From an uncultured Gammaproteobacteria bacterium (GTDB lineage Bacteria > Patescibacteriota > Patescibacteriia > Magasanikbacterales > GWA2-37-8): DNA of 64,000 bases. Below, piece by piece: positions 684 through 14,772 of the stretch (positions are counted from its first letter, which is position 1; each line of letters opens with the position of its first letter). Location: positions 6,200 through 70,199 of the forward strand of contig CAZHYG010000001.1 in the NCBI GenBank assembly GCA_964536615.1. The letters run 5' to 3'. The position numbers and the translations under genes were made by a program. The notes beneath the pieces are model-generated. The model saw only the letters and a program-made list of their open reading frames with translations, made no database searches and had not been told where the DNA came from.

Positions 684-2723
<2,040 letters not shown>

Positions 2724-2785
2724 TCACCAGTGTGCAAAATATAAAAAAAGTGATATAATAATATCGCTTACTTAAAATTCTCTGT

Positions 2786-5746
2786 ATGTACATTAGTTGG
2801 TTTAAAGATTTAACTATCAAAGATATTCCGAGCGTAGGCGGTAAAAACGCTTCGCTTGGTGAAATGTACGCTAAATTGACATCAAAAGGCATGAAAGTGC
2901 CAAATGGTTTTGCGTTAACCGCCGATGTGTATTGGGATTTTATCAAAGAAAATAAGTTGGATAAGAGAATAAAAGAAACACTTAAGGGTCTGGATAAAAA
3001 AAACGTGCACGAGTTGTCTGTGGTAGGAACCAAAATTCGCAAAATGATTTTGCAAGGCAAATTTTCTACAGAAGTAGAAAAGCAAATTGTTAGCGCTTAT
3101 AAAGAACTTTCCAAATTTTCCAAAAAATCAAATTTAGATGTAGCCGTGCGCAGCTCTGCTACAGCCGAAGATCTGCCAGACGCCAGTTTTGCCGGGCAGC
3201 AAGAAACATATTTAAATGTTCGTGGAGAAAAAGAATTGTTGCTAGCCAGCAAAAAATGTATTGCCTCGTTGTTTACCGATCGTGCCATTTCGTATCGTGA
3301 AGACAAAGGCTATGACCATACCGCCATTGCCTTGTCTGTAGGTGTTCAAGAAATGGTGCGTTCCGATCTTGGTGCCAGCGGGGTGATGTTTACCCTTGAT
3401 ACCGAATCTGGGTTTAAAGGTGCGGTACTTATTAACGCTGCGTATGGTTTGGGTGAATATGTGGTAAAGGGTCAGGTAACACCAGATCAGTTTTATGTAT
3501 TTAAAGATGGTCTAAAAAATGGTTTTAAATCTATTATTAGTAAACGTTTGGGCAGTAAGGAAGTTAAACTCATGTATGGCACAACAGGTACCAAGCAACA
3601 AAAAGTTAAAATATCTGAACAAAAAGTTTTTTGTTTAACAGACGATGAAGTCTTGCAATTGGCAAAATGGGGCGTGCTTATTGAAGATCACTATGGCCAT
3701 CCTATGGACATAGAATGGGCAAAAGATGGTGCTACTGGCCAGTTATATATCGTTCAAGCCAGATCCGAGACAGTTCGTTCTAAGGCAAATGTAAACATAA
3801 TTGAACAATACGAACTTAAACAAAAAGGCCCGGTAATGTTGACTGGTACCAGTGTTGGTCAAAAAATTGGCAATGGCAAGGCGCGAATCATCAACTCTCC
3901 AAAACAAATGAAGCAGTTTAAACCTGGTGAAGTTTTGGTAACTCGTATTACCGATCCAGATTGGGAACCAATCATGCGTATTGCCAGCGCTATTATTACC
4001 GAGCAGGGTGGAAAAACTTCTCATGCAGCTATTGTTAGTCGTGAGCTAGGCACGCCATGCATTGTGGGTGCGGCAAAAGCCAGGCAAATCATTAAAAATG
4101 GCCAAGATATTACCGCTTCCTGCGCTGAAGGTGATGTTGGGTATGTATATAAGGGTAAATTACCATTTGAGGTTCATAAAACCGAAATTAAAGAAGTTGC
4201 CAGCACTCGCACTAAAATAATGATGAATGTAGGCGATCCAGCTAGCGCTTTTGCATTGTCGGCAATCCCAAACAATGGTGTAGGTCTTGCTCGTGAAGAG
4301 TTTATTTTTACCAATTTTGTAAAGATTCATCCGCTTGCGCTGGTAAATTATAAAGACCAGCACAGCGAAACAAAAGCTAAAATAGACGCACTTACTGTGG
4401 GTTATAAAGACAAGGCTCAGTACTGTGTGGATAAGCTTGCCGAAGGCATTGCCTTTATTACCGCGGCGTTTCATCCTAATGACGTAATTGTTCGCTTGTC
4501 TGATTTTAAAACTAATGAATATGCCACTCTTATTGGCGGCGCGGCTTATGAACCAAAAGAAGAAAACCCAATGATCGGTTGGCGCGGCGCGTCTCGCTAT
4601 TATGATGAAAAATTTAAGCCAGGTTTCAAACTGGAATGCGAAGCCATTAAAAAAGTTCGTAATGAGTGGGGGATGAAAAACTTAATCGTGATGGTGCCGT
4701 TTTGCCGTACGGTAGAAGAAGGTAAAAAAGTTTTGGCAACCATGAAAGAATTTGGATTGGAACGTGGCAAAGACGGTTTAAAAGTATATGTGATGTGTGA
4801 AATTCCTGCCAATGTAATTTTAGCTAAAGAATTTTCCGAGATTTTTGATGGGTTTAGTATTGGTTCAAACGATCTTACTCAGCTTACTTTGGGAGTAGAT
4901 AGAGATTCCGCGCTGGTAAGCCATGTCTATGATGAAAAAAACGAAGCTGTAAAAACTTTGATACGCCAAGTAATTCGCGTAGCTCATGAAAACAAACGCA
5001 AAGTAGGTATTTGCGGACAGGCGCCGAGTGACTATCCGGAATTTGCCGAATTTTTGGTGCAAGAGGGGATAGACAGTATTTCGCTTAACCCAGACACGGT
5101 GCTCAAAACTCGTGAGCGAATTGCAGCCATGGAGAAAAAAGTTGCCGCCAAGCCAACCGGTAGTTTCAAGATGGGGATGGCTTCAAAATTATTGCTTATT
5201 TTTGGAGTGTTGGGTCTTACTACGGTTTTAGGCGGATACACCTGTCAAAATGTAAATGCCAATAAAATGTCGCCTGAAGAAGTAAAAGTTGAGGTTGCAA
5301 ATCAAGTGGCGGTAGCGCGACAAGAGATGAAAAAAGAGATGGAAGAAGCGTTTGAAAAAGAAAGAAAAGCTCAAAAATCCACATATGTTGAAAAGGGTGA
5401 TGATTTGCCAGAATTTACAATCTCGTATCCTTCAGGCTGGGCTGTAATGCGTCTAAAAAATCTAGCTACTTTTACCAATAATACTTTGCCTGAAAGCGCC
5501 TTTAGTGTAAGGGTATATCCGTTTACGCAGGGCAAGACAGAAAATTTGATTGGTACATCCACTTGGAATAACCTGCCAGTAGAAATATTTGAATTTCCCG
5601 GTGTAGATAATGTTAAAATTGGACGCAGAGTTATTGCTATATATCCGGATGGTTATAAAAAATCAAAATATATTATCTCTTTTGAAGGTACGCCAGATTA
5701 TTTTGATCAAATTTTCCAGAGTGTAAAAGATTTTAAAATTAATTAA
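2786..5746 (+). CDS. ppsA: Phosphoenolpyruvate synthase (pyruvate, water dikinase) with an in-frame ~200-aa C-terminal extension
   Basis: N-terminus MYISWFKDLTIKDIPSVGGKNASLGEMY is a classical PpsA start. The PEP-utilizing and mobile His domains end near aa 785 (SISLNPDTVLKTRERIAAMEKK), then comes a signal-peptide-like segment and a ~190-aa extra domain (see finding). Confidence 0.9.
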   Translation: MYISWFKDLTIKDIPSVGGKNASLGEMYAKLTSKGMKVPNGFALTADVYWDFIKENKLDKRIKETLKGLDKKNVHELSVVGTKIRKMILQGKFSTEVEKQIVSAYKELSKFSKKSNLDVAVRSSATAEDLPDASFAGQQETYLNVRGEKELLLASKKCIASLFTDRAISYREDKGYDHTAIALSVGVQEMVRSDLGASGVMFTLDTESGFKGAVLINAAYGLGEYVVKGQVTPDQFYVFKDGLKNGFKSIISKRLGSKEVKLMYGTTGTKQQKVKISEQKVFCLTDDEVLQLAKWGVLIEDHYGHPMDIEWAKDGATGQLYIVQARSETVRSKANVNIIEQYELKQKGPVMLTGTSVGQKIGNGKARIINSPKQMKQFKPGEVLVTRITDPDWEPIMRIASAIITEQGGKTSHAAIVSRELGTPCIVGAAKARQIIKNGQDITASCAEGDVGYVYKGKLPFEVHKTEIKEVASTRTKIMMNVGDPASAFALSAIPNNGVGLAREEFIFTNFVKIHPLALVNYKDQHSETKAKIDALTVGYKDKAQYCVDKLAEGIAFITAAFHPNDVIVRLSDFKTNEYATLIGGAAYEPKEENPMIGWRGASRYYDEKFKPGFKLECEAIKKVRNEWGMKNLIVMVPFCRTVEEGKKVLATMKEFGLERGKDGLKVYVMCEIPANVILAKEFSEIFDGFSIGSNDLTQLTLGVDRDSALVSHVYDEKNEAVKTLIRQVIRVAHENKRKVGICGQAPSDYPEFAEFLVQEGIDSISLNPDTVLKTRERIAAMEKKVAAKPTGSFKMGMASKLLLIFGVLGLTTVLGGYTCQNVNANKMSPEEVKVEVANQVAVARQEMKKEMEEAFEKERKAQKSTYVEKGDDLPEFTISYPSGWAVMRLKNLATFTNNTLPESAFSVRVYPFTQGKTENLIGTSTWNNLPVEIFEFPGVDNVKIGRRVIAIYPDGYKKSKYIISFEGTPDYFDQIFQSVKDFKIN

Positions 5747-5771
5747 TAAAATTATTCATTAACGTACATAT

Positions 5772-6089
5772 ATGTGCAATAACGGACAATGCGGACAAAA
5801 TCAGCAGGGTGGAGGATGTTGTGGCACTCATAAAATGGGTTGTGGCTGGGGGCATAAATCCGTTTGGTGCTGGCTTATCGGATTGGTAGTTTTAGTAATT
5901 GTATTTTGCACTGGTTACAAATTGGGTGTGTTGCGCGGATATTTTGGAGGGTATTATGGCATGTATAACGGCGGTATGTATTACCGGGGCGGGGTAGGTG
6001 GTAATTGGGGACCGGGTATGATGCGAAACTGGCAGTTTGATCAAACTGTTCAAGAACAGGGCAAGTCTGCCACCAATACTGAAAAATAA
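5772..6089 (+). CDS. Small Cys/Gly/Tyr-rich membrane protein, hypothetical
   Basis: Cys-rich N-terminus (CGQNQQGGGCCG), one TM helix, GY/GG-rich tail; followed directly by a hairpin terminator. Confidence 0.45.
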   Translation: MCNNGQCGQNQQGGGCCGTHKMGCGWGHKSVWCWLIGLVVLVIVFCTGYKLGVLRGYFGGYYGMYNGGMYYRGGVGGNWGPGMMRNWQFDQTVQEQGKSATNTEK

Positions 6090-6103
6090 AATATCTAAAA
6101 CAA

Positions 6104-6137
6104 AATATCCCGGTTATTCCGGGATATTTTTATTTTG
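6104..6137. terminator. Bidirectional rho-independent terminator (CCCGG-TTATT-CCGGG plus T-run)
   Basis: The sequence atcccggttattccgggatatttttatttt lies between the convergent genes 5772..6089(+) and 6114..6713(-). Confidence 0.6.
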
Positions 6138-6713
6138 TTTTCCGTATGCCATCTCAAGCAATAATTGCTTAGCTTTTCTTATGCGAGTGTTAATGGTGGC
6201 AATATTTATATTAAAATCTTTAGCAATATCTATAGGTCTTTTGCCTGTCATAAGCAGTTCCATGATAATTCGGTACCCCGATGGCAATTTTTCTATATCT
6301 GCTCTTAGAGCGCTGACTTCAAAATCTTGATTCTCCTTTTCTTCTTTTTCTATTACTATATCCTCAATTGTTTGGTCATCTCGGTTTGGTGTTGACGGAG
6401 AAAGTTTATCAATAATTTGGGTAAATCTTTTTCGTTTTCGTATTGCATCAATCGTAGTATTGTTTACAATTTGATGTAGCCAGGTGGTAAGAGACGCTTC
6501 GCCTCTATATTTTCCTTTTGATATCGCCTGAGCTGCTTTAGCTAACGTGGTTTGGATTATGTCTTCAATATCTGTTTCGGGAGGAAGATTGTTAAATTTT
6601 TTTCTGCATGCATTTATAAGAAAGTTTCTGGTTTCGGCGGATTGTAATTGTTTTAACAAATTTTCTGATTGTGGTTCTGTTGTCTCAGGCTGATGATGCG
6701 GCATTCGTTCCAT
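6114..6713 (-). CDS. ECF-type RNA polymerase sigma factor (sigma-70 family, regions 2 and 4)
   Basis: Region 2-like IEDIIQTTLAKAAQAI...TWLHQIVNNTTIDAIRKRKR and region 4 HTH LPSGYRIIMELLMTGKRPIDIAKDFNINIATINTRIRKAKQLL. Confidence 0.8.
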   Translation of the reverse strand: MERMPHHQPETTEPQSENLLKQLQSAETRNFLINACRKKFNNLPPETDIEDIIQTTLAKAAQAISKGKYRGEASLTTWLHQIVNNTTIDAIRKRKRFTQIIDKLSPSTPNRDDQTIEDIVIEKEEKENQDFEVSALRADIEKLPSGYRIIMELLMTGKRPIDIAKDFNINIATINTRIRKAKQLLLEMAYGKQNKNIPE

Positions 6714-6878
6714 AAAAATATATTATATATTTTGTAAATATATCTTAAAAAGAGGAGGTTGTAAACTGTAGTTTTATACAAAAACCTCGTTCGCATATTT
6801 CTCCTTGCCCAATATTCAATATGTTTGAAAACAGGGCAAGTAGAGCGAACGAGGGTTTTGATGTTTGCAGGAGGTTCG

Positions 6879-7064
6879 TCACATGTAGGAAGCCGAAAGG
6901 TCTTCACATAGGCGAACTTCCTTGGTAGTGAAGATGTGTTGACCACCCTCCATAGTGAAACCCAGCGTTTTCCCATCGCAACCGAGTATGCGAGTCGCAT
7001 GGACTAGCTGCCCCAATAGTTCCGGGGCAGTTGCGGGAGCGGTGTGGATTCGGATGATTACCAT
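6879..7064 (-). CDS. Candidate small protein (61 aa) in a GC-elevated structured region; could instead be part of an ncRNA
   Basis: AGGAAA Shine-Dalgarno ~8 nt upstream of the ATG. A long imperfect hairpin (aaaacctcgttcgc...gcgaacgagggtttt) with a T-run lies downstream. Local GC is ~50% against ~37% background. No recognised family. Confidence 0.25.
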   Translation of the reverse strand: MVIIRIHTAPATAPELLGQLVHATRILGCDGKTLGFTMEGGQHIFTTKEVRLCEDLSASYM

Positions 7065-7211
7065 TGGGATTTTTCCTGGTTGGGTTGCTGTTATTTATAG
7101 TAAACTAGATTGCCATTTTATTCAAATAGATTATAAACAGGGCGAGTTTGACAATTGGCTGAGTTTTTTGTATACTTTATAAAGTTAAATTAGTGTCAAA
7201 AAAGTACAATT

Positions 7212-7288
7212 TGGGTCGGTAGTTCAACTGGTTAGAGCACTGCCCTGTCACGGCAGAAGTTGCGGGTTCGAGTCCCGTCCGACCCGCC
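7212..7288 (+). tRNA. tRNA-Asp (anticodon GTC)
   Basis: Cloverleaf folds by hand: acceptor GGGTCGG/CCGACCC, anticodon loop CTGTCAC (GUC), T-loop TTCGAGT, encoded CCA; hairpin CCAC-ataa-GTGG plus T7 follows directly. Confidence 0.9.
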
Positions 7289-7402
7289 AGTTATTTCAAC
7301 ATAGAAACTCCACATAAGTGGTGTTTTTTTGTTTTAGTCTAGCGGAAATCGAGCTCACAACTTTTTTACTTTGAGATACCGAGAAGTTCCTCTCTTTGCT
7401 CC

Positions 7403-7424
7403 CTGTGTCCATTTTGTGTCCAAA
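7403..7424 (+). repeat. Tandem TGTGTCCA-N3-TGTGTCCAAA motif (copy 1)
   Basis: The sequence ctgtgtccattttgtgtccaaa recurs in the same orientation at 8501..8524, flanking ORF 7531..8412. Confidence 0.5.
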
Positions 7425-7530
7425 TCTTTGCCGAGCATGTCTGAAGGACATTAATAGCGTTTATTAATGTTTCGGAAGCAAGGTGCGCATCTAGACGAGA
7501 AGGGAGAATTATCTAAACAATCTGGCTTTA

Positions 7531-8412
7531 CTATAATTTAATTAGTTTTTTAAAGTATCTAAAAAGAAATAAGTCTAATTGGACTTTAAATTTATTCCAC
7601 CAGTTAAAATCGAGCCTTTTTATTTTTTGTTTGTCGACCATATTTTCTATAAATGGATAGATTATACTGATATGTTCAAATCCGCCATTTTTTAATGTTG
7701 CACCAGCGCCACCGTTCAAAGAAAAAGAAAGGGTTTCATCTTCTTTTTTATTACCTTTGGAGCTTATTCGTGTAAATATACCTATTATTCCTGGGCTTAT
7801 AGAGGGGCAGGGAATGTACTTTAAGGGTATTATTCCATAGTTAGGATGGTTAAAGGGTATAGTTCCCGTGCTTAAATTCAGCATTCTAATACTTTCTTTT
7901 GGAAGATAAAAAAATTCAAGATTGTAGCTGTAATCATTGTTGTTTCTTGGTTTATTATAAAAATCTACAATCTGTTCAAAGTCATTTATGATAATACTGC
8001 TTTTAATTTTATTTAACGGTGATATTAAATTTTTAGTATGGAAGATAAAAATTGGACCACCGTCGTTATTTCTTTTTTTAAGATCCATACTCTGACTGAA
8101 AATTCCTTTATGACCTTTAAAATATTTATAAAAGCCTGACATTATATCTGTGCCAGAAATATTCACTATTCCGTCAACGTGATGAGTTACTTTAGGTGAT
8201 TTTGAAACTAGCCAATATTTACAATCCTTCATTGGCACGGCGTAAAACCTAGACTTTCTTACATTTTCAGGCGGAATTATCATCTTGATGATAAGATATT
8301 CCTTTGCGTCATTTATTAAATCCTTTACAAAAAATCCACCTTCAGAAGTATAGCCGAGTTTAAAGATTTTATATATTTTTTCCTTACTTTTTATACAGAT
8401 ATCAAATTTCAT
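7531..8412 (-). CDS. Hypothetical protein (293 aa), very AT-rich, inside the tRNA-associated insert
   Basis: Long ORF with no recognisable motif. Its GC is lower than the backbone, consistent with foreign origin. Confidence 0.5.
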   Translation of the reverse strand: MKFDICIKSKEKIYKIFKLGYTSEGGFFVKDLINDAKEYLIIKMIIPPENVRKSRFYAVPMKDCKYWLVSKSPKVTHHVDGIVNISGTDIMSGFYKYFKGHKGIFSQSMDLKKRNNDGGPIFIFHTKNLISPLNKIKSSIIINDFEQIVDFYNKPRNNNDYSYNLEFFYLPKESIRMLNLSTGTIPFNHPNYGIIPLKYIPCPSISPGIIGIFTRISSKGNKKEDETLSFSLNGGAGATLKNGGFEHISIIYPFIENMVDKQKIKRLDFNWWNKFKVQLDLFLFRYFKKLIKL

Positions 8413-8500
8413 ATCCTATAAAGTATAACTTAGCATATTTAAAATCTATTTAAAACCCTCTCCACCACCTTTTCTATATCGCTGTTGGACATCTTAAAAT

Positions 8501-8524
8501 TTGTGTCCACCCTGTGTCCAAAAA
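8501..8524 (+). repeat. Tandem TGTGTCCA-N3-TGTGTCCAAAA motif (copy 2)
   Basis: The sequence ttgtgtccaccctgtgtccaaaa pairs with the motif at 7403..7424. Confidence 0.5.
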
Positions 8525-8640
8525 GTGATGAAATGAAGATTTTTTAACTGGATTTGATAGTGAACGAGAAGCGAATTATTTGCTAGAATTAGCAATAAAA
8601 TAAGGATTATTGCTAAAAATCACAAAATACCGCCCAGCGT

Positions 8641-8661
8641 TTCGAGTCCCGTCCGACCCGC
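8641..8661 (+). repeat. Direct repeat of the tRNA-Asp 3' end (TTCGAGTCCCGTCCGACCCGC), att-site-like
   Basis: Identical 21-mer to 7266..7286, with no tRNA body upstream of it. Confidence 0.7.
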
Positions 8662-8804
8662 ATAGCGGAAAAAATTCAAATTTCAGAATCCCTGCCACAT
8701 GCTGGTAGGGTTCTTTTTTGTATTTGTATGGAGCGTACTTGACCATACGCAAACTTTTTGCTAACATCTTTTGTTGTTGGAACAAACCATGGAGGCAAGA
8801 GGGT

Positions 8805-9053
8805 ATGCGCGCGCAAAAATCAAGATTCTCTAACCACCGCAACTGGCTTCAAGCCGTCGTTCACTGGAACGGCGGTCCGGTCGAGTGTGCCGACCACTTC
8901 AAGTTCGATGACGGTCGGCTCAGGGGGCGGGTCCAGGTCGCCATGACGGTGTACTTCCCGGGCCTCATCGAGCTCGGGGTGGGTGCAACCTTCGGCGAGT
9001 GTGTGGCAGAACTGGAGTCGCGATTTCCCGATCGCTTCAGCGCTTCAGCCTGA
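8805..9053 (+). CDS. Hypothetical small protein (82 aa) at the start of a high-GC block
   Basis: GGAGG SD-like sequence upstream (ggaggcaagagggtATG); GC-rich codon usage with GC3 bias. Confidence 0.35.
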   Translation: MRAQKSRFSNHRNWLQAVVHWNGGPVECADHFKFDDGRLRGRVQVAMTVYFPGLIELGVGATFGECVAELESRFPDRFSASA

Positions 9054-9205
9054 TCGCACCCTGTCATCCATCCGAAACCAACAAGGAGGCAGCCTGGCCT
9101 CGTCGCATTCGTGCGGCGGGGCCTTTTCAATATGTATTCGCAACCTTGACCACAAGGTTCTTTTTTAGTATAAATTTCAGTTAGGTTAACCCAAGGAGAA
9201 GTGCC

Positions 9206-10243
9206 ATGGCGATGATTGATAGTCTTCCGGATAGGATCAAGCCCTATTGTCAGAACCCCGAGCTTACGGAGGTTCTGATCTATAAGATGAGGCTGATGGC
9301 CGCAGGTGAGATGTGCAAGGGTGATGATGTCATTTTGGCGCTACTTGGTCTTGCTGGTTTGGAGATCAAGGATTATCAGGCGCGAGAGGTTGCTCGACAT
9401 CTCATTAAGGTAGGATGGCTTGAGTTGGTTGGGGAAGATGATCGCTACGCTTTCACCGCTCGTGCAAGAAAGTGTAGCCAAGACCCTGCGGTCAAGCAGC
9501 GGTTTGATGAAATCAGCGCCGCACAGGATCGTTCTAGCTCTCGAAACAAGGTTCCTTCACCCAAGTCTGCCCGACTCGATCTCATTAGGAGGGTGGCAAG
9601 CAGAGACGGATCCGCCCCAAACTCCACTAGATCTGGCGGTGTTCCAGGCCTTTCACAGGACAGACTGGATATGTTGTTGCCGTTGTTTGTGGCGACGGAG
9701 GGTGGGAGCTTTTTCGTTGAAGCTGCTCGGAGAGCTAAAGAGCTTGGTTTCAGCACAACTCAAGCGTTCAACGGTACGCTTATGCTGCTCAAGCAAGCAG
9801 GGTGGCTGACGAAAGTTGCATATGGTGTAGTGCAGTGGGATCTGGAGAAGGTCCCGCCGAAGTGGCGTGAAGCGCTGCCAAAAAAGAGCGAGCTGTCTGC
9901 TTCTGAACAGGTTGAGGAAGCTTCTGAAACCAGCGAAGGTGCGGAAGATGGTGGTGGCGCTGTGACAGTTGAAGGCGAGTCTGCACCTGTCTCCGAAGTA
10001 GAGGGGGGCGAGAAACCTGATAGCGAATCGTCTGGTGACGAAGAAGTTGATGAAGATGTTCAGGTAGAAGTTGTGGTTGAGTCAGCGTTGCAGACTGATC
10101 AAATCGGCGAGTCGGAACCGCAGCGATTGTTTGGGTTGTTGTTGGCGGTCACTGTTGAAGGTCTCTACCGTCAGATTGAGTGCATGCCAAGAGAACTCCA
10201 GATCATGGTTCTCAATGCGCTCAATCAGCGGATTAATGAGTGA
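9206..10243 (+). CDS. Hypothetical protein (345 aa) with two similar N-terminal helical modules and a strongly acidic E/D/S-rich C-terminal region; high-GC foreign gene
   Basis: AAGGAG SD 8 nt upstream of the ATG. GC3-rich codons. The internal segments ...VILALLGLAGLEIKDYQAREVARHLIKVGWLEL... and ...FVEAARRAKELGFSTTQAFNGTLMLLKQAGWLTKV... resemble each other and look winged-helix-like. Acidic tail EEASETSEGAEDGGG...DEEVDEDVQVEVVVE. Confidence 0.6.
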   Translation: MAMIDSLPDRIKPYCQNPELTEVLIYKMRLMAAGEMCKGDDVILALLGLAGLEIKDYQAREVARHLIKVGWLELVGEDDRYAFTARARKCSQDPAVKQRFDEISAAQDRSSSRNKVPSPKSARLDLIRRVASRDGSAPNSTRSGGVPGLSQDRLDMLLPLFVATEGGSFFVEAARRAKELGFSTTQAFNGTLMLLKQAGWLTKVAYGVVQWDLEKVPPKWREALPKKSELSASEQVEEASETSEGAEDGGGAVTVEGESAPVSEVEGGEKPDSESSGDEEVDEDVQVEVVVESALQTDQIGESEPQRLFGLLLAVTVEGLYRQIECMPRELQIMVLNALNQRINE

Positions 10244-10340
10244 AGCAGATCCAGAAGGGGTAATTCACTCGTGTTAGGAATTAGGAGGGGTGTGCGGCGA
10301 GCCACATTAAAGCGCTTAATTGGCGTGCTCGCATATCTCA

Positions 10341-10378
10341 AAAACAACTTTCTGTTAGAAGGTTGTTTTTGTTTTTTT
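10341..10378 (+). terminator. Rho-independent terminator
   Basis: aaacaactt-tctgttag-aaggttgttt hairpin followed by TTTTTGTTTTTTT. Confidence 0.6.
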
Positions 10379-10505
10379 ATTTTATCTAGATTTTATTTAT
10401 TTCTTATCTGTATTTGTATCTCAAAATGTATAATTAATTTATAAGGTTTTAAATATGAATATATAAGTATATAAAGGTCGAGTTTTTATTTTTAACTATT
10501 TTTAT

Positions 10506-11066
10506 ATGAGTAAAATAAAATATATTTTCCTAGCGGCAGGTTTTTTTATTGGTACAGCAACTATTTTGCTGATTCCAAAAGTATTTGCCCATGAAGGCAA
10601 TAGCGATCCAAATTTAATTCACGGATGTGTGAGTGATTTAACCGGCGCCTTAAGAGTTGTGTCCGCTACCACGACTAGTTGTGGTGCTTTGGAAACAGCT
10701 ATTCATTTTCCGGCAACTTTGTCTAGTGTACCGCCGCTTACATGTCCTGGGTGCGATATGACCGAATCAACACATTTGAGATATAAGGATTTAACAGGTG
10801 CGTGGTTGAGAGGGGCAATTTTATCATACGGCGATTACACAGGAGCTATTTTTACAGATGCGGATATGAGGGATGTCATTGCCGATGGGGCAAACTTTAG
10901 AGATGCAGATATGAGAAATGTGTTCTTTGAGCGCACGGCATTTACAGGTGCGATTGGTATGACCACAACGCTGTTAACGGGTGCCACATGGAGTTCTGTA
11001 AATTGCCCTGATGGTTCAAATAGCAGTGATCATGATAATACTTGTATCGGTCATCTTAGTCCATAA
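10506..11066 (+). CDS. Secreted pentapeptide-repeat protein
   Basis: Signal peptide MSKIKYIFLAAGFFIGTATILLIPKVFA. Tandem pentapeptide-like repeats (DLTGAWLRGAILSYGDYTGAIFTDADMRDVIADGANFRDADMRNVFFERTAFTGA). Confidence 0.65.
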   Translation: MSKIKYIFLAAGFFIGTATILLIPKVFAHEGNSDPNLIHGCVSDLTGALRVVSATTTSCGALETAIHFPATLSSVPPLTCPGCDMTESTHLRYKDLTGAWLRGAILSYGDYTGAIFTDADMRDVIADGANFRDADMRNVFFERTAFTGAIGMTTTLLTGATWSSVNCPDGSNSSDHDNTCIGHLSP

Positions 11067-11104
11067 TTTAAAAATAGAAGCGCATATTTTTATAATATTA
11101 TCAA

Positions 11105-11136
11105 ACTACCCAAACCATTGGGTAGTTTTAATTTTG
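11105..11136 (+). terminator. Rho-independent terminator
   Basis: ACTACCCAA-ACCA-TTGGGTAGT hairpin plus TTTAATTTTG. Confidence 0.65.
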
Positions 11137-11206
11137 TATATTTTAGAATGAGTTTAATATTGACAAAACAATTTATTTTTGCTAGCTTTGGCGTTAAGGG
11201 GGTGCT

Positions 11207-11572
11207 ATGAAAAAAAATCTTAGCGCAGGAGAGGTCCTTGATCTTCTGGTGCTTGACTTGCTGAAAAGATCCGGTGTAGAGCGCGTTGTGTTTCGGCAAG
11301 TGTACGGCAAGTACCAGTCGCTACTGCGCGAGCACATGCTCTATCCGCTCATTGATGCCATTCTGCTGAGGCTGGGAAAGCGATCTACCGGTCGGCGAAC
11401 CGGCGCAACTAGGCGGTTTCTGGCATTTCTCATGAAAGTTCTGGTGAGCGAGCGGGTTGGGATTGCGATACCGGATTTCAAACCCAATGATTTTTCGCGT
11501 TGGGTTGTCTGGGGGAGTCAGATAAAGACCTGGTTGGAAGCAAGGCAAGCCAAAGACGAGAAGGTGCTGTAG
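11207..11572 (+). CDS. Hypothetical protein (121 aa), GC-elevated
   Basis: GGGGGT SD before the ATG; R-rich central segment; followed by a long hairpin terminator. Confidence 0.45.
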   Translation: MKKNLSAGEVLDLLVLDLLKRSGVERVVFRQVYGKYQSLLREHMLYPLIDAILLRLGKRSTGRRTGATRRFLAFLMKVLVSERVGIAIPDFKPNDFSRWVVWGSQIKTWLEARQAKDEKVL

Positions 11573-11675
11573 TATGGTCGCGCAAAAGCCGCCACCATGC
11601 CAATTATGTTCTAAATATTTTGGAATATAATTGGCTGGCGGCTTTTTTGTTTTATTTATTAAACAGATTACTAGA

Positions 11676-11704
11676 TTGACAAAATTGTATGTTTTATTTA
11701 TATT
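11676..11704 (+). promoter_or_regulatory. Near-consensus sigma70-type promoter TTGACA-N17-TATATT
   Basis: gaTTGACAaaattgtatgttttattTATATTcat lies immediately upstream of ORF 11712..11969. Confidence 0.55.
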
Positions 11705-11711
11705 CATCCTT

Positions 11712-11969
11712 ATGAGCAATTCGTCATATTTTGAGCAGTTGGTGCAGAAGCTTATGGCAGGGATAACCAAGGAGACTGGCAGGAGGTTTTTCCCCAGCTA
11801 CATCCTAGGTGGATGGTTTCTGAAAGAGCTCAACAAGCGCTTGGCAACGGAGTTGGGGGTTAACCCAGGTTTGTTGCCGTCGCAACTGCAGGCTCTTGAA
11901 ACGTATTTGCCTTTGGCGGGTAACTGCCTGATGCTCGCAATGGTAGAGCGTCAGTATGGGGAGTTGTGA
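11712..11969 (+). CDS. Hypothetical small protein (85 aa); internal start chosen because the longer ORF begins inside the upstream terminator hairpin
   Basis: ATG at 11712 follows the consensus promoter. The upstream ATG at 11631 sits within the terminator stem. Confidence 0.4.
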   Translation: MSNSSYFEQLVQKLMAGITKETGRRFFPSYILGGWFLKELNKRLATELGVNPGLLPSQLQALETYLPLAGNCLMLAMVERQYGEL

Positions 11970-12048
11970 TGCGGTTGTGTCCAGGTCGCTGTAATTGCAA
12001 AGATTAGATGTGTATATAATTTTTGCAATAGCGATCTGGGTAAATATA

Positions 12049-12080
12049 AACACCTTGGCTAAAATAGCCAAGGTGTTTTA
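12049..12080 (+). terminator. Rho-independent terminator
   Basis: AACACCTTGGCT-aaaata-AGCCAAGGTGTT plus TTTA. Confidence 0.6.
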
Positions 12081-12094
12081 GCGTGTGTTGAAAA

Positions 12095-12117
12095 TGTGAT
12101 ATAATATATATGGAGGT
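12095..12117 (+). promoter_or_regulatory. Extended -10 promoter (TGaTATAAT) plus GGAGGT Shine-Dalgarno for the downstream small gene
   Basis: tgtgaTATAATatatatGGAGGTagcggtATG. Confidence 0.5.
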
Positions 12118-12123
12118 AGCGGT

Positions 12124-12321
12124 ATGCCCGAAGCAAACCAAGAGTATTTGCGGCAGTGCGCGCAAGCCATGTCCGGTGAAGATCTGCTTGCTGCATTTGA
12201 ACGCGAGCTCACACAAGACATCTTCTACAGGGATGGTGGAGAAGATTCTTTGCAGTTGCAATGCTTGCGTGAGGAGTTGTTGAGGCGACTGAAACCTGAA
12301 GGAGAGAGAGGGCGAAGATAG
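12124..12321 (+). CDS. Hypothetical small helical protein (65 aa)
   Basis: Textbook promoter and SD upstream; E/R-rich helical sequence; GC-elevated. Confidence 0.45.
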   Translation: MPEANQEYLRQCAQAMSGEDLLAAFERELTQDIFYRDGGEDSLQLQCLREELLRRLKPEGERGRR

Positions 12322-12442
12322 TGCCGCTAAACATTTGCGCGCACAGAGACTCTTCGCCGTTGTTGTTTAATAGCAAAAATTATTATTAATCATAGAATAA
12401 TTAAATACATTTAGTTATTCTAAATATCGTATTGTATATAAT

Positions 12443-12958
12443 ATGAAAAAAATAGCGTCTGGTTTATTAGTTGGAGCTGTGGTATTGTCTGCCGTTCCGT
12501 TTTTGGTAAAAACCGTATCTGCTAACGATGATGCCAGTTCGGTTTCTGCAAGTTCTTCCACTCAAGATGTGTTGGAGCAAAAAAAACAAGAAATGGAACA
12601 GTTGCGTGAAGCTCAGAAGCAAGAAATGGAACAGAAACGTGAAGAGATGAAACAAGCTCTTGAGCTTAAAAAACAAGAATTAGAAAAAGCGCGTGAAGCA
12701 AAGAAGCAGGAAATGGCACAGAAGCGCGAAGAGATAAAAAAGAAAGAAGAAGCACGCAAAGCTAGAAATGCCGCCTATCGTGCCGCAGTTAAAAAAGCTC
12801 AAGCAGACCACAGGGCTGCGATTGTCGCTGCTAACAAAGCATATCAAGAAGCGTTAAAAGAAGCTAAAAAGTTGCTCTCCGCACCGCTTGTAATAGAAGT
12901 GCCGACATCAACTATGCCAGCCACCAGCACAACTTCAGCATCTTCCACTGCTATCTAG
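12443..12958 (+). CDS. Secreted low-complexity coiled-coil protein with KQEMEQ(K/L)RE repeats
   Basis: Signal peptide MKKIASGLLVGAVVLSAVPFLVKTVSA. Tandem KKQEMEQLREAQKQEMEQKREEMKQ repeats. ST-rich C-terminus. Confidence 0.6.
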   Translation: MKKIASGLLVGAVVLSAVPFLVKTVSANDDASSVSASSSTQDVLEQKKQEMEQLREAQKQEMEQKREEMKQALELKKQELEKAREAKKQEMAQKREEIKKKEEARKARNAAYRAAVKKAQADHRAAIVAANKAYQEALKEAKKLLSAPLVIEVPTSTMPATSTTSASSTAI

Positions 12959-12976
12959 TTTTTAAAAAAATATCAA

Positions 12977-13010
12977 AAAACACCCCGTCAATATGATTGG
13001 GTGTTTTTTT
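12977..13010 (+). terminator. Rho-independent terminator
   Basis: ACACCC-gtcaatatgatt-GGGTGT plus T7. Confidence 0.65.
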
Positions 13011-14312: not shown

Positions 14313-14354
14313 AAATAATATTTGTGCCACATGATGCCGTACAAGGCATTTCTG

Positions 14355-14772
14355 TGGAGGTGGCGAGAGTTGAACTCGCGTGTAGATAACTATGACTAAA
14401 CCGTCTACATACTTAGTGTCTCTTGGTGTGTCCTGGGCCAATAAAAGAGGACGAAAATTGGCTCAGCGAGCCGAGGAGACTTCACGATGCGATAATCGGC
14501 ATTACCGCCTCGCTACACTCAATGAATAACACCGTGGTTCGGTTATTGAGCATTGCCGATACGATGTCTCAAATCACGAAGGATCTGAGATAACCAGCAT
14601 GGTTCTTAGGCCATTACTGGAGCAAAGTTGGTGCTGAAAGCGTTAGCTACAGCAGACTTTACTTTTGATAACAAGTTTGCACTTATTATGTTGCTCCGTG
14701 TGATTTACGAGGAAAAGAGCTTCCTCGGTATGCAAGTGTAGCCAGAAGCTCCTATCGAAGCCCGGCACCCCC
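14355..14772 (-). ncRNA. ssrA: tmRNA (ssrA)
   Basis: On the minus strand the 5' end is GGGGGTGCCGGGCTTCGA... The 3' end ACGCGAG-TTCAACT-CTCGC-CACCTCC-A gives a tRNA-like T-arm plus acceptor stem pairing with the 5' GGGGGTG. An internal tag ORF starts at a GCA AAC resume context (ANLLSKVKSAVANAFSTNFAPVMA-stop). It lies immediately downstream of smpB. Confidence 0.85.

Follow-up and report, generated by a model that had tools for sequence, protein, structure and literature searches.

A tRNA-Asp gene and a displaced copy of its 3' end bracket a probable deletion remnant of a tyrosine-integrase element in a Patescibacteria-like bacterium

What carried a second copy of the 3' end of a tRNA-Asp gene to a position 1.35 kilobases downstream of that gene? 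The question is raised by a 64,000-nucleotide stretch of DNA from an uncultured bacterium (GenBank assembly GCA_964536615.1, contig CAZHYG010000001.1, positions 6,200 to 70,199 of the forward strand; the whole stretch is referred to as 'the window' and is numbered from its first nucleotide). A 21-basepair segment, TTCGAGTCCCGTCCGACCCGC, forms the end of the tRNA-Asp gene (core repeat 1) and recurs beyond an AT-rich open reading frame (ORF) for a protein of 293 amino acids (core repeat 2; feature coordinates are collected in Table 1). The two repeats are very probably the attL and attR cores of a prophage or genomic island of the tyrosine-integrase type, since decayed by deletion, and tandem 8-basepair repeats near both ends are likely arm sites of that element. 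A preliminary description, made from the sequence, had read the repeats as attL and attR, and that reading is strengthened by a repeat that runs from T-loop to 3' end, by the foreign composition of the DNA in between, and by the same 21-mers bounding a different island in a sister strain (contig L161, described below).

The 21-mer occurs exactly twice in the window (0 copies expected; 0 matches in 100 shuffles), and no copy beyond these two was found when up to three mismatches were allowed, which answers the concern that it might recur at random. Both copies are exact, as had been reported, although the first lies one basepair away from the position originally assigned to it. Parsing of the tRNA (T-stem 7262-7266/7274-7278, T-loop 7267-7273, 3' acceptor strand 7279-7285, discriminator 7286, CCA 7287-7289) shows that the identity block opens with the T-loop and closes one base past the discriminator, on the first C of CCA. 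The second copy is without a tRNA body, as had been stated: nothing of the gene lies 5' of it, and no 10-mer from the remainder of tRNA-Asp recurs near 8641-8661. A direct repeat that matches the 3' segment of a tRNA (21 of 21 positions) bounds the inserted DNA, and the tRNA itself remains intact (ARAGORN, Rfam) through a 3' part that the element would have supplied; both are properties of tRNA-integrated elements.

The second 21-mer could in principle be the last piece of a decayed tandem tRNA-Asp copy, or a chance match, since tRNA genes duplicate and a relative (L022) carries at positions 3776-3799 a 24-nucleotide copy of its tRNA-Asp 5' end, GGGTCGGTAGTTCAACTGGTTAGA, 73 bp 5' of the intact gene. 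We regard this as extremely improbable, because no copy is expected by chance, because identity breaks off sharply at the T-loop boundary and the sequence 5' of it does not resemble a tRNA, and because the 21-mers enclose an integrase remnant and arm repeats and also bound the integrase-bearing island of L161. The fragment in L022 may itself have been left by an integration into the 5' half of the tRNA, as the attP core of a viral contig described below (L122) suggests to be possible.

Details of the two 3' ends suggest that the present tRNA-Asp gene is a composite, with a 5' part from the host and with the part 3' of the crossover, CCA included, supplied by the element. Its positions 1-75 are the same as those of tRNA-Asp in L022, where TTT follows; in a second relative, L023, TTA follows. 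CCA is encoded only in the live copy, and neither in the displaced copy nor in the tRNA-Asp genes of L022 and L023. This argument turns on just two bases and is suggestive. The hairpin and T-run beyond core repeat 2 are probably the original tRNA-Asp terminator; that hairpin is retained in L161 despite base changes in its stem, and at the place of the hairpin that now ends the tRNA transcript L161 has a better stem of 6 bp with changed bases. Because the displaced copy is followed by ATA and a good terminator, and the live copy by CA and a weak hairpin, the arrangement fits a native 3' end that was pushed downstream and a foreign 3' end that is in use. The sequence TAGCGGAAA is found both at 7340-7348 (52 bp after core repeat 1, just past the hairpin) and at 8663-8671 (1 bp after core repeat 2), and the equivalent places in L161 read GAGCGGAAATC and TAGCGGAAAAATC; it could be an additional protein site, or host flank captured into the attachment site of the element.

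The composition of the DNA between the repeats is unlike that of its surroundings, with a GC fraction of 0.295-0.33 across 7401-8600 (400-bp windows) against 0.42 for the whole window; across 8601-10200 it rises to 0.51-0.565. The enclosed ORF is AT-rich, as first described. The preliminary description had also reported no integrase, and no intact integrase gene exists within the 64 kb, but the last 41 codons of one do lie close to core repeat 1. The product of 7369-7491 (minus strand) matches the C-terminus of the integrase pseudogene of L161 at 29 of 39 amino acids (BLASTP, E=3e-19), and in both strains these sequences adjoin the attachment site, as the 41-codon remnant alone in the window and as a truncated Phage_integrase ORF in L161. 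Since that remnant is present, the island would be a deletion derivative of an element that once had an integrase, all but the last 41 codons having been lost in a deletion that ends at about 7489. Of the two possibilities raised at the outset, a decayed island or a non-autonomous element, the remnant decides for the first, with non-autonomy as a possible description of the present state.

An insertion sequence or miniature inverted-repeat transposable element was considered and set aside, because the island lacks terminal inverted repeats and because the 21-bp repeat is tRNA sequence and not a target duplication. No inverted repeats pair the ends of the island, and the longest inverted pairs near those ends are AT-rich matches (72-81%) that lie off the boundaries.

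An error of assembly does not explain the arrangement. Other assemblies, made independently, run across the left junction (L011), the right junction (L021) or both (L001/L010 and L002) at 99.9-100% identity, and five or more samples of the strain have assemblies or read sets that cover the island, every such contig carrying it at the same 99.9-100%. Some contigs break at the tRNA (L012, L013 and L002) or at 10402 (L015 and L016). We rejected population heterogeneity as the reason, since a break at the tRNA fits a tRNA that is common to other genomes in the sample. Contig L021 stops at 10387, 14 bp short of L015, which fits a coverage gap, and the three SPAdes contigs have equal coverage (10.6-11.8x). 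Positions 1-79 of L011 (ERZ27283032 k141_192733) are Illumina adapter fused to genomic DNA.

A different occupant of the same site was found in the sister strain represented by L161 (ENA contig ERZ4216102 NODE_1848), which was reached through a 90%-cluster variant of the 345-amino-acid protein encoded downstream of the island. The same 21-mer is present in that contig at 241-261 and at 9435-9455, with 9.17 kb of approximately 31% GC between the copies. Directly after attL lies an ORF of 119 amino acids that matches Pfam Phage_integrase, followed (930-9247) by genes for a NACHT-like protein, a 1008-amino-acid HEAT/DUF8371 protein, a 544-amino-acid TPR protein and others; the 293-amino-acid gene is absent from that island. 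Translation of the integrase region (...RFGELIALKW...HTLRHTFASHL...LLGHSDLKTTMRYAHIASETLMNAINVLQTCSAKIWSQNGHSVQKEVALSNSI and a stop, with many stops before it) displays the motifs RFGEL, HTLRHT and LLGH...RYAH, of which RYAH is a catalytic motif. The L161 gene is the C-terminal catalytic half of a tyrosine recombinase that has lost its N-terminal half.

DNA homology between the two islands is restricted to their ends, stopping at 7488 on the attL side, and their interiors are unrelated. The site is therefore filled differently in a relative, where the two 21-mers enclose 9.17 kb of other genes, and the content of the site is specific to the strain. The empty site that the preliminary description had proposed to look for in related genomes was not found, and this differently filled site is what the comparison yielded in its place.

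At nearly equal distances from the two cores the island carries two tandem copies of an 8-mer, TGTGTCCA-N3-TGTGTCCA, at 7404-7422 and at 8502-8520. Both pairs are on the plus strand, flanking the ORF in the same orientation as had been noted, and they are the sole matches in the window at up to two mismatches (0.04 expected). A layout in which the core is flanked left and right by two direct repeats of another sequence, here 116 and 118 bp away, is that of integrase arm sites. All four copies read TGTGACCA at the homologous positions of L161, with A in place of T: the left (attL) pair in that contig is TGTGACCAtttTGTGACCAAA / TGTGACCAttttGTGACCAAA and the right (attR) pair is TGTGACCAaacTGTGACCAAA, the same as in L162. 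Independent neutral change is not a credible account of one base altered in all four copies, which argues that the repeats are read by one factor. Of the two pairs, only the left one is coding sequence (for the integrase tail, KIWTQNGH), which places the constraint on the DNA. On this evidence the islands of the window and L161 would descend from related elements of slightly different specificity, and we consider it likely that the tandem TGTG[T/A]CCA pairs are arm-type integrase binding sites. The suggestion that such pairs might be recombinase sites was part of the preliminary description; it gains from this concerted change and from the enrichment beside integrase genes described below.

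The pairs could instead be unrelated to integrase binding, the left one being coding sequence for the integrase tail (KIWTQNGH) and the right one a promoter or operator of the cargo gene. In favor of this, the 3' remnant of the integrase includes the left pair, the right pair shares bases with a −35-like TGGACA that faces the cargo gene with TAAGAT 18 bp away, and elsewhere the motif occurs in phage helicase coding sequence and in origin-like iteron arrays. A coding remnant and an unrelated promoter would nevertheless not be expected to have the same tandem 8-mer at mirror distances (116/118 bp), nor to change jointly from T to A in all four copies; moreover the right pair of L161 precedes no cargo homologue, and of the viral pairs described below one is read in a different frame (KCVQSVSK, in L145) and two lie outside the integrase ORF (L147 and L154). 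We therefore judge this alternative to be improbable. The motif does not encode the 'LGH' box of the integrase, an idea that proved wrong: LLGH...RYAH of L161 is upstream, and the motif lies in the tail past the catalytic tyrosine. An inverted TGGACA is present at 8486-8491, beside the right pair. A lone fifth TGTGTCCA, at 11976-11983 just past the stop of a 112-amino-acid ORF (11631-11969) and kept in L161 at 12780, is within the chance expectation for an 8-mer in 64 kb.

The same pairs were found beside intact integrase genes in unrelated viral contigs. When IMG/VR was scanned for TGTGTCCANNNTGTGTCCAAA, 51 contigs were returned, of which approximately 32 represent one conserved helicase coding sequence and were set aside, the remainder forming approximately 10 non-coding groups; scans for pair, gap and pair returned L154 and L156, together with two contigs bearing iteron arrays (L153 and L155). 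Of 14 independent non-coding groups with pairs of TGTGTCCA, 4 have an integrase no more than 250 bp away (0.63 expected), and in L122/L131, L145, L147 and L154 the distance to a full tyrosine-integrase gene is 0-70 bp. A scan for pairs of TGTGACCA returned 23 viral contigs, 11 of them with a tyrosine integrase 0-214 bp away (1.87 expected by random placement in the same loci); among the 11 is Staphylococcus phage EW, in which the gene is annotated as an integrase. No motif pair was found in 80 unrelated genome loci.

In L147 (42% GC), a tRNA-Pro gene and a terminator are followed by TTTGGACACAccTTGGACACA and a third copy, and then by a 401-amino-acid integrase (Pfam Phage_integrase, 1e-28). 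In L122/L131 (61% GC), two pairs enclose a 139-bp core that contains a tRNA-like 5' half, directly 5' of a 389-amino-acid integrase. In L145 (63% GC), the pair is located in the tail of an integrase that matches Pfam Arm-DNA-bind_4, and because it is read there in another frame than in the window, conservation is at the level of DNA. In L154 (59% GC), a pair (5974-5991) is followed by a tRNA 3' end (T-arm, acceptor and CCA, approximately 6120-6160), a terminator hairpin, a second pair (6232-6249) and a minus-strand integrase (hmmsearch, 9e-31). To judge from its order of parts, this layout would be the attP expected if the island of the window were circularised, with the same relation of motif to tRNA strand and the same sequence of core, terminator, pair and integrase.

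Motif-only searches also return other kinds of locus. The exact 21-mer TGTGTCCAAATTGTGTCCAAA is coding sequence just 5' of a helicase DEAQD motif in L102, L103, L105-L108 and approximately 26 further small marine viral loci, and is a trap for such searches. Six consecutive 11-bp iterons (CATGTCCAAGC three times, TGTGTCCAAGA twice and a final TGTGTCCAAA) are found in L112 (223-290) and L129 (12248-12312), and the DNA fetched for these contigs contains no integrase. The high-GC viral contigs L153 (7313-8145) and L155 (6258-6510) carry at least 10 GTGTCCA repeats with an 11-bp period, and the array in L155 adjoins an ORF for an 830-amino-acid primase-polymerase-like protein. The GTGTCCA 7-mer may serve as an origin iteron in other elements.

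The simplest history that accounts for these observations is as follows. A tyrosine-integrase element would have recombined with the segment of tRNA-Asp from T-loop to 3' end, bringing along a version of that segment that encodes CCA and is followed by a hairpin and a T-run, so that the tRNA was kept intact and the native 3' end and its terminator were displaced 1.35 kb downstream. Its integrase, presumably a two-domain (heterobivalent) enzyme, would have bound the core and two tandem copies of TGTGTCCA (11-bp period) in each arm. A later internal deletion would have spared only the last 41 codons of the integrase and presumably taken other genes as well, leaving both attachment sites and one cargo gene.

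Several observations weigh against this history. No intact integrase gene is present in the window, and every contig of the species carries an island, with no empty site among them. The nearest other genomes are too distant to supply one: the phosphoenolpyruvate (PEP) synthase of L022 is 67% identical at the amino acid level, and its whole interval from tRNA to rplT differs. The right boundary is unclean, with the 70 bp after core repeat 2 at 75% identity to L161 and then a gradual rise to 100% over approximately 4.5 kb. The left 8-mer pair lies within coding sequence and the right one overlaps a −35-like hexamer. Lastly, the motif also occurs without an integrase, in helicase coding sequence, in iteron arrays and at intergenic sites of small marine phage contigs, and is not by itself diagnostic of an integrase site.

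Scans for predicted junctions bear on whether the remnant still moves. The predicted attB was the full tRNA-Asp through ...GTCCGACCCGC joined to ATAGCGGAAAA / ATAGCGGAAAAAATTC, and the predicted attP was ...CCGCCCAGCGT / ...AAAATACCGCCCAGCGT + TTCGAGTCCCGTCCGACCCGC + CAGTTATTTC / CAGTTATTTCAACATAG, the island sequence from 7288 onwards beginning with CAGTTATTTC. The predicted attB/attR junction had no match in metagenome contigs, and a core followed after 101-131 nucleotides by the motif pair had none in viral and metagenome contigs. In L023 the tRNA-Asp gene is on the other strand, and no relatives were reached through the adjacent sigma factor in genome contigs.

The remnant might thus be a working non-autonomous cassette for the 293-amino-acid gene, comparable to a cis-mobilizable element (CIME) and moved in trans by a related integrase, which is compatible with an origin by decay. 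The 21-mers are identical to each other and none of the four 8-mers has a mismatch, although the arm DNA differs by 20-25% from L161, wholly different cargo between homologous ends in two strains indicates that the content has turned over, and the same motif is present at intact integrases elsewhere. Neither a circular junction nor an empty site nor a second copy was recovered in the junction and core-plus-motif scans, however, and no contig from the five or more samples that cover the island is without it; no integrase lies within 64 kb, homologues of the cargo gene are never beside a tRNA, the motif or flanking repeats, and intact sites may simply reflect a recent deletion. We consider a working cassette rather unlikely. 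More speculative still, and in our view doubtful, is the idea that the tRNA-Asp site is an active exchange point at which a one-base arm 'address' (TGTGTCCA versus TGTGACCA) matches ends to helper integrases and remnants are moved in trans, swapping defence-like cargo.

The cargo gene has 18 full-length homologues with 41-100% identity, which is what came of the proposed homology search, and 147 cluster representatives at E<=1e-3. Invariant motifs of the family (PKxTHHxDG...SGxGIxSG, NDGGP and LEFFY) point to a real gene of a real protein family. The protein had no match in Pfam, PHROGs, PADLOC, NCBIfam or PDB sequences, and the extra C-terminal regions of longer family members contain no Pfam domain. 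Its AlphaFold (AF2) model is mostly beta (pLDDT 85.4, pTM 0.83), and a Foldseek comparison of that model with PDB and BFVD gave no hit at E <= 0.001 and TM-scores below 0.2. Homologues elsewhere have as neighbours HEPN/AbiV-like, Mrr-like and DUF5677 genes, an nSTAND3/AAA_14 ATPase, a KAP NTPase, an HNH endonuclease, and a ParB-methyltransferase and LexA-like protein accompanied by a DUF8370/DUF8371 protein, neighbourhoods that are typical of variable or defence regions. The DUF8370/DUF8371 protein near the homologue in L007 (1544-2956) and the HEAT/DUF8371 protein of the L161 island hint at a common pool of accessory genes. With low confidence, we guess that the role of the cargo is defence-related or otherwise accessory.

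Could the 293-amino-acid protein be a new kind of recombinase that moved the segment itself? It is the product of the sole intact gene between the repeats, it has neither family nor fold match, and its invariant motifs contain His, Asp and Glu. Seven loci with homologues, however, have no tRNA, motif or flanking direct repeats of at least 13 bp (bar one 13-mer consisting only of A and T), from which we take the cargo to be passenger DNA and not the cause of the repeats; in addition, L161 has the same attachment sites without the gene, and the remnant of a classical integrase accounts for those sites. A role as recombinase is scarcely credible.

Table 1. Features of the tRNA-Asp locus and identity of its segments to the sister-strain contig L161
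Feature	Position	Strand	Basis or remark	Identity to L161
Promoter-like TTGACA-17-TATACT for tRNA-Asp	7148-7176	+	11/12 consensus bases, 37 bp 5' of tRNA; consensus match only	
186 bp 5' of tRNA				97.8%
tRNA-Asp(GTC)	7213-7289	+	ARAGORN; Rfam tRNA model 66.8 bits	100%
Core repeat 1 (putative attL core)	7267-7287	+	T-loop, 3' T-stem, 3' acceptor strand, discriminator, first C	
Putative attL arm	7290-7488			80.0%
Hairpin + T-run, apparently element-borne, now ending tRNA transcript	7307-7330	+	Weak stem; from sequence; absent from terminator-scan calls	
Integrase 3' remnant	7366-7491	-	41 codons DAHLASETLINAINVLQTCSAKIWTQNGHREQREELLGISK + stop; BLASTP to L161 integrase tail	
Left pair of 11-bp-spaced repeats	7404-7424	+	TGTGTCCAtttTGTGTCCAAA; proposed P' arm, 116 bp from core repeat 1, inside integrase 3' tail	
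Cargo gene, 293 aa, no family name	7531-8412	-	Homologues, structure model	
Putative attR arm	8463-8640			74.6%
Promoter-like TGGACA-18-TAAGAT facing cargo	8491-8520	-	9/12 consensus bases; weak consensus match only; -35 within right pair	
Right pair of repeats	8502-8522	+	TGTGTCCAcccTGTGTCCAAA; proposed P arm, 118 bp 5' of core repeat 2, non-coding	
Core repeat 2 (putative attR core)	8641-8661	+	Displaced native tRNA-Asp 3' end, then ATA not CCA	100%
Segment after core repeat 2	8662-8730			75%
Intrinsic-terminator-like hairpin + T-run	8690-8719	+	8-pair stem then TTCTTTTTTG	
GC-rich block	8730-10400	+	GC profile, 51-56% GC; outside 1.35-kb island	91-96%
ORF in GC-rich block, 82 aa	8805-9053	+		
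ORF in GC-rich block, 345 aa	9206-10243	+		
Backbone	from ~12.2 kb			99-100%
Backbone	from ~13 kb			~100%

The GC-rich block that begins shortly after core repeat 2 had been taken as a hint of successive insertions at one hotspot. In favor of that view, the 345-amino-acid protein has no homologue outside its own 90% cluster, neither ORF of the block had a match in family searches, the block is more diverged than the backbone (91-96% against 98-100% identity to L161), and its flanks, TTCTTTTTTGTATTTGTAT (8711-8729) and TTCTTATCTGTATTTGTAT (10401-10419), form a direct repeat at 17 of 19 positions that none of 300 shuffles of both flanks reached. Against it, no third tRNA fragment lies near the block, which is present in every strain seen. 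The hotspot view thus has partial support. From 8662 to 13000 identity to L161 climbs smoothly, from 75% through 91, 94, 96, 97 and 98% to 100% by approximately 13 kb; a single recombination tract would be expected to leave a block of uniform divergence and not this gradient. The region from tRNA-Asp to approximately 11-12 kb behaves as a variable region.

Genes for a DNA ligase, a PEP synthase of 986 amino acids and an ECF-type (extracytoplasmic function) sigma factor (6114-6713, minus strand) are neighbours in the window, and a pentapeptide-repeat protein, rplT, infC, transfer-messenger RNA (tmRNA; 14354-14772) and smpB lie beyond the variable region. The closest PEP-synthase loci are on contigs of metagenome-assembled genomes labelled Magasanikbacteria, Moraniibacteriota or Patescibacteria; L022 is labelled Gammaproteobacteria, yet has the same order of ppsA, tRNA-Asp, rplT-rpmI-infC and tmRNA. 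The PEP synthase (2786-5746, plus strand) has a C-terminal extension of approximately 190 amino acids, comprising a hydrophobic segment and an extra domain, that it has in common with L022, and most other relatives match only its residues 2 to approximately 790. The tmRNA, on the minus strand and 419 nucleotides long, encodes an unusually long tag of 24 residues, ANLLSKVKSAVANAFSTNFAPVMA, with related tags in L022 and L023.

The locus is useful as a clearly readable case from a group of uncultured bacteria in which few integrative elements have been analysed in detail: a pair of sister strains has different cargo between the same attachment sites, with an integrase pseudogene kept in one and the last 41 codons in the other. 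If confirmed, the tandem TGTG[T/A]CCA motif with its 11-bp period could help to locate the attachment sites of one integrase clade. Searchable literature yielded no description of this arm motif, only primers and unrelated matches, which is weak evidence of novelty. If the doubtful idea of an exchange point were true, the pair would be an unnamed and very widely shared arm-site code, read by integrases of phage EW, of actinophage-like contigs with high GC and of bacteria from candidate phyla, and attachment sites could be sought with it computationally. Attention is also drawn by the island to a conserved 293-amino-acid family with no fold match that travels with defence-type genes.

Among known systems, the closest in layout are the heterobivalent attP sites of lambda, P2 and 186. 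Phages P2 and 186 have two tandem direct repeats on each side of the core (PMC3448106). The island has in common with these phages that the element is enclosed by direct copies of its core and that each arm has a pair of tandem repeats; one attachment site adjoins integrase sequence, a truncated gene in L161 and the 41-codon remnant in the window. The arm consensus of P2, tgTGGaCa, resembles the motif of the window in length and in being arranged as tandem direct repeats. Unlike them, only 41 codons of integrase are present here, the arm motif is TGTG[T/A]CCA, one arm pair overlaps the integrase tail, and the host is an uncultured Patescibacteria-like organism.

Sublocation classes of integration within tRNA genes, as Williams is said to have set them out in Nucleic Acids Research in 2002, include one with crossover in the T-loop and identity to the 3' end. 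The present identity block resembles that class in running from the first T-loop base through the discriminator plus one base, with an element that restores the tRNA 3' end; the assignment is made by the start of the identity block and not by a crossover position.

CIMEs were defined for relatives of integrative and conjugative elements in Streptococcus, and reportedly (Pavlovic and colleagues in 2004, Bellanger and colleagues in 2011) derive from integrative elements by loss of the recombination module. The island is like them in its attL and attR flanks, whose function is read from their sequence, in having no functional integrase or recombination genes of its own, in its apparent origin by deletion and in the related elements at the same site. 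It differs in that no partner element, accretion or excision was observed, in a parent that would be phage- or island-like, and in a size of just 1.35 kb. With cryptic or defective prophage remnants near tRNAs it shares an integrase fragment, foreign composition and few accessory genes, although it is unusually small for such a remnant and both of its attachment sites are complete. The island is an ordinary kind of genomic scar that happens to be unusually well preserved.

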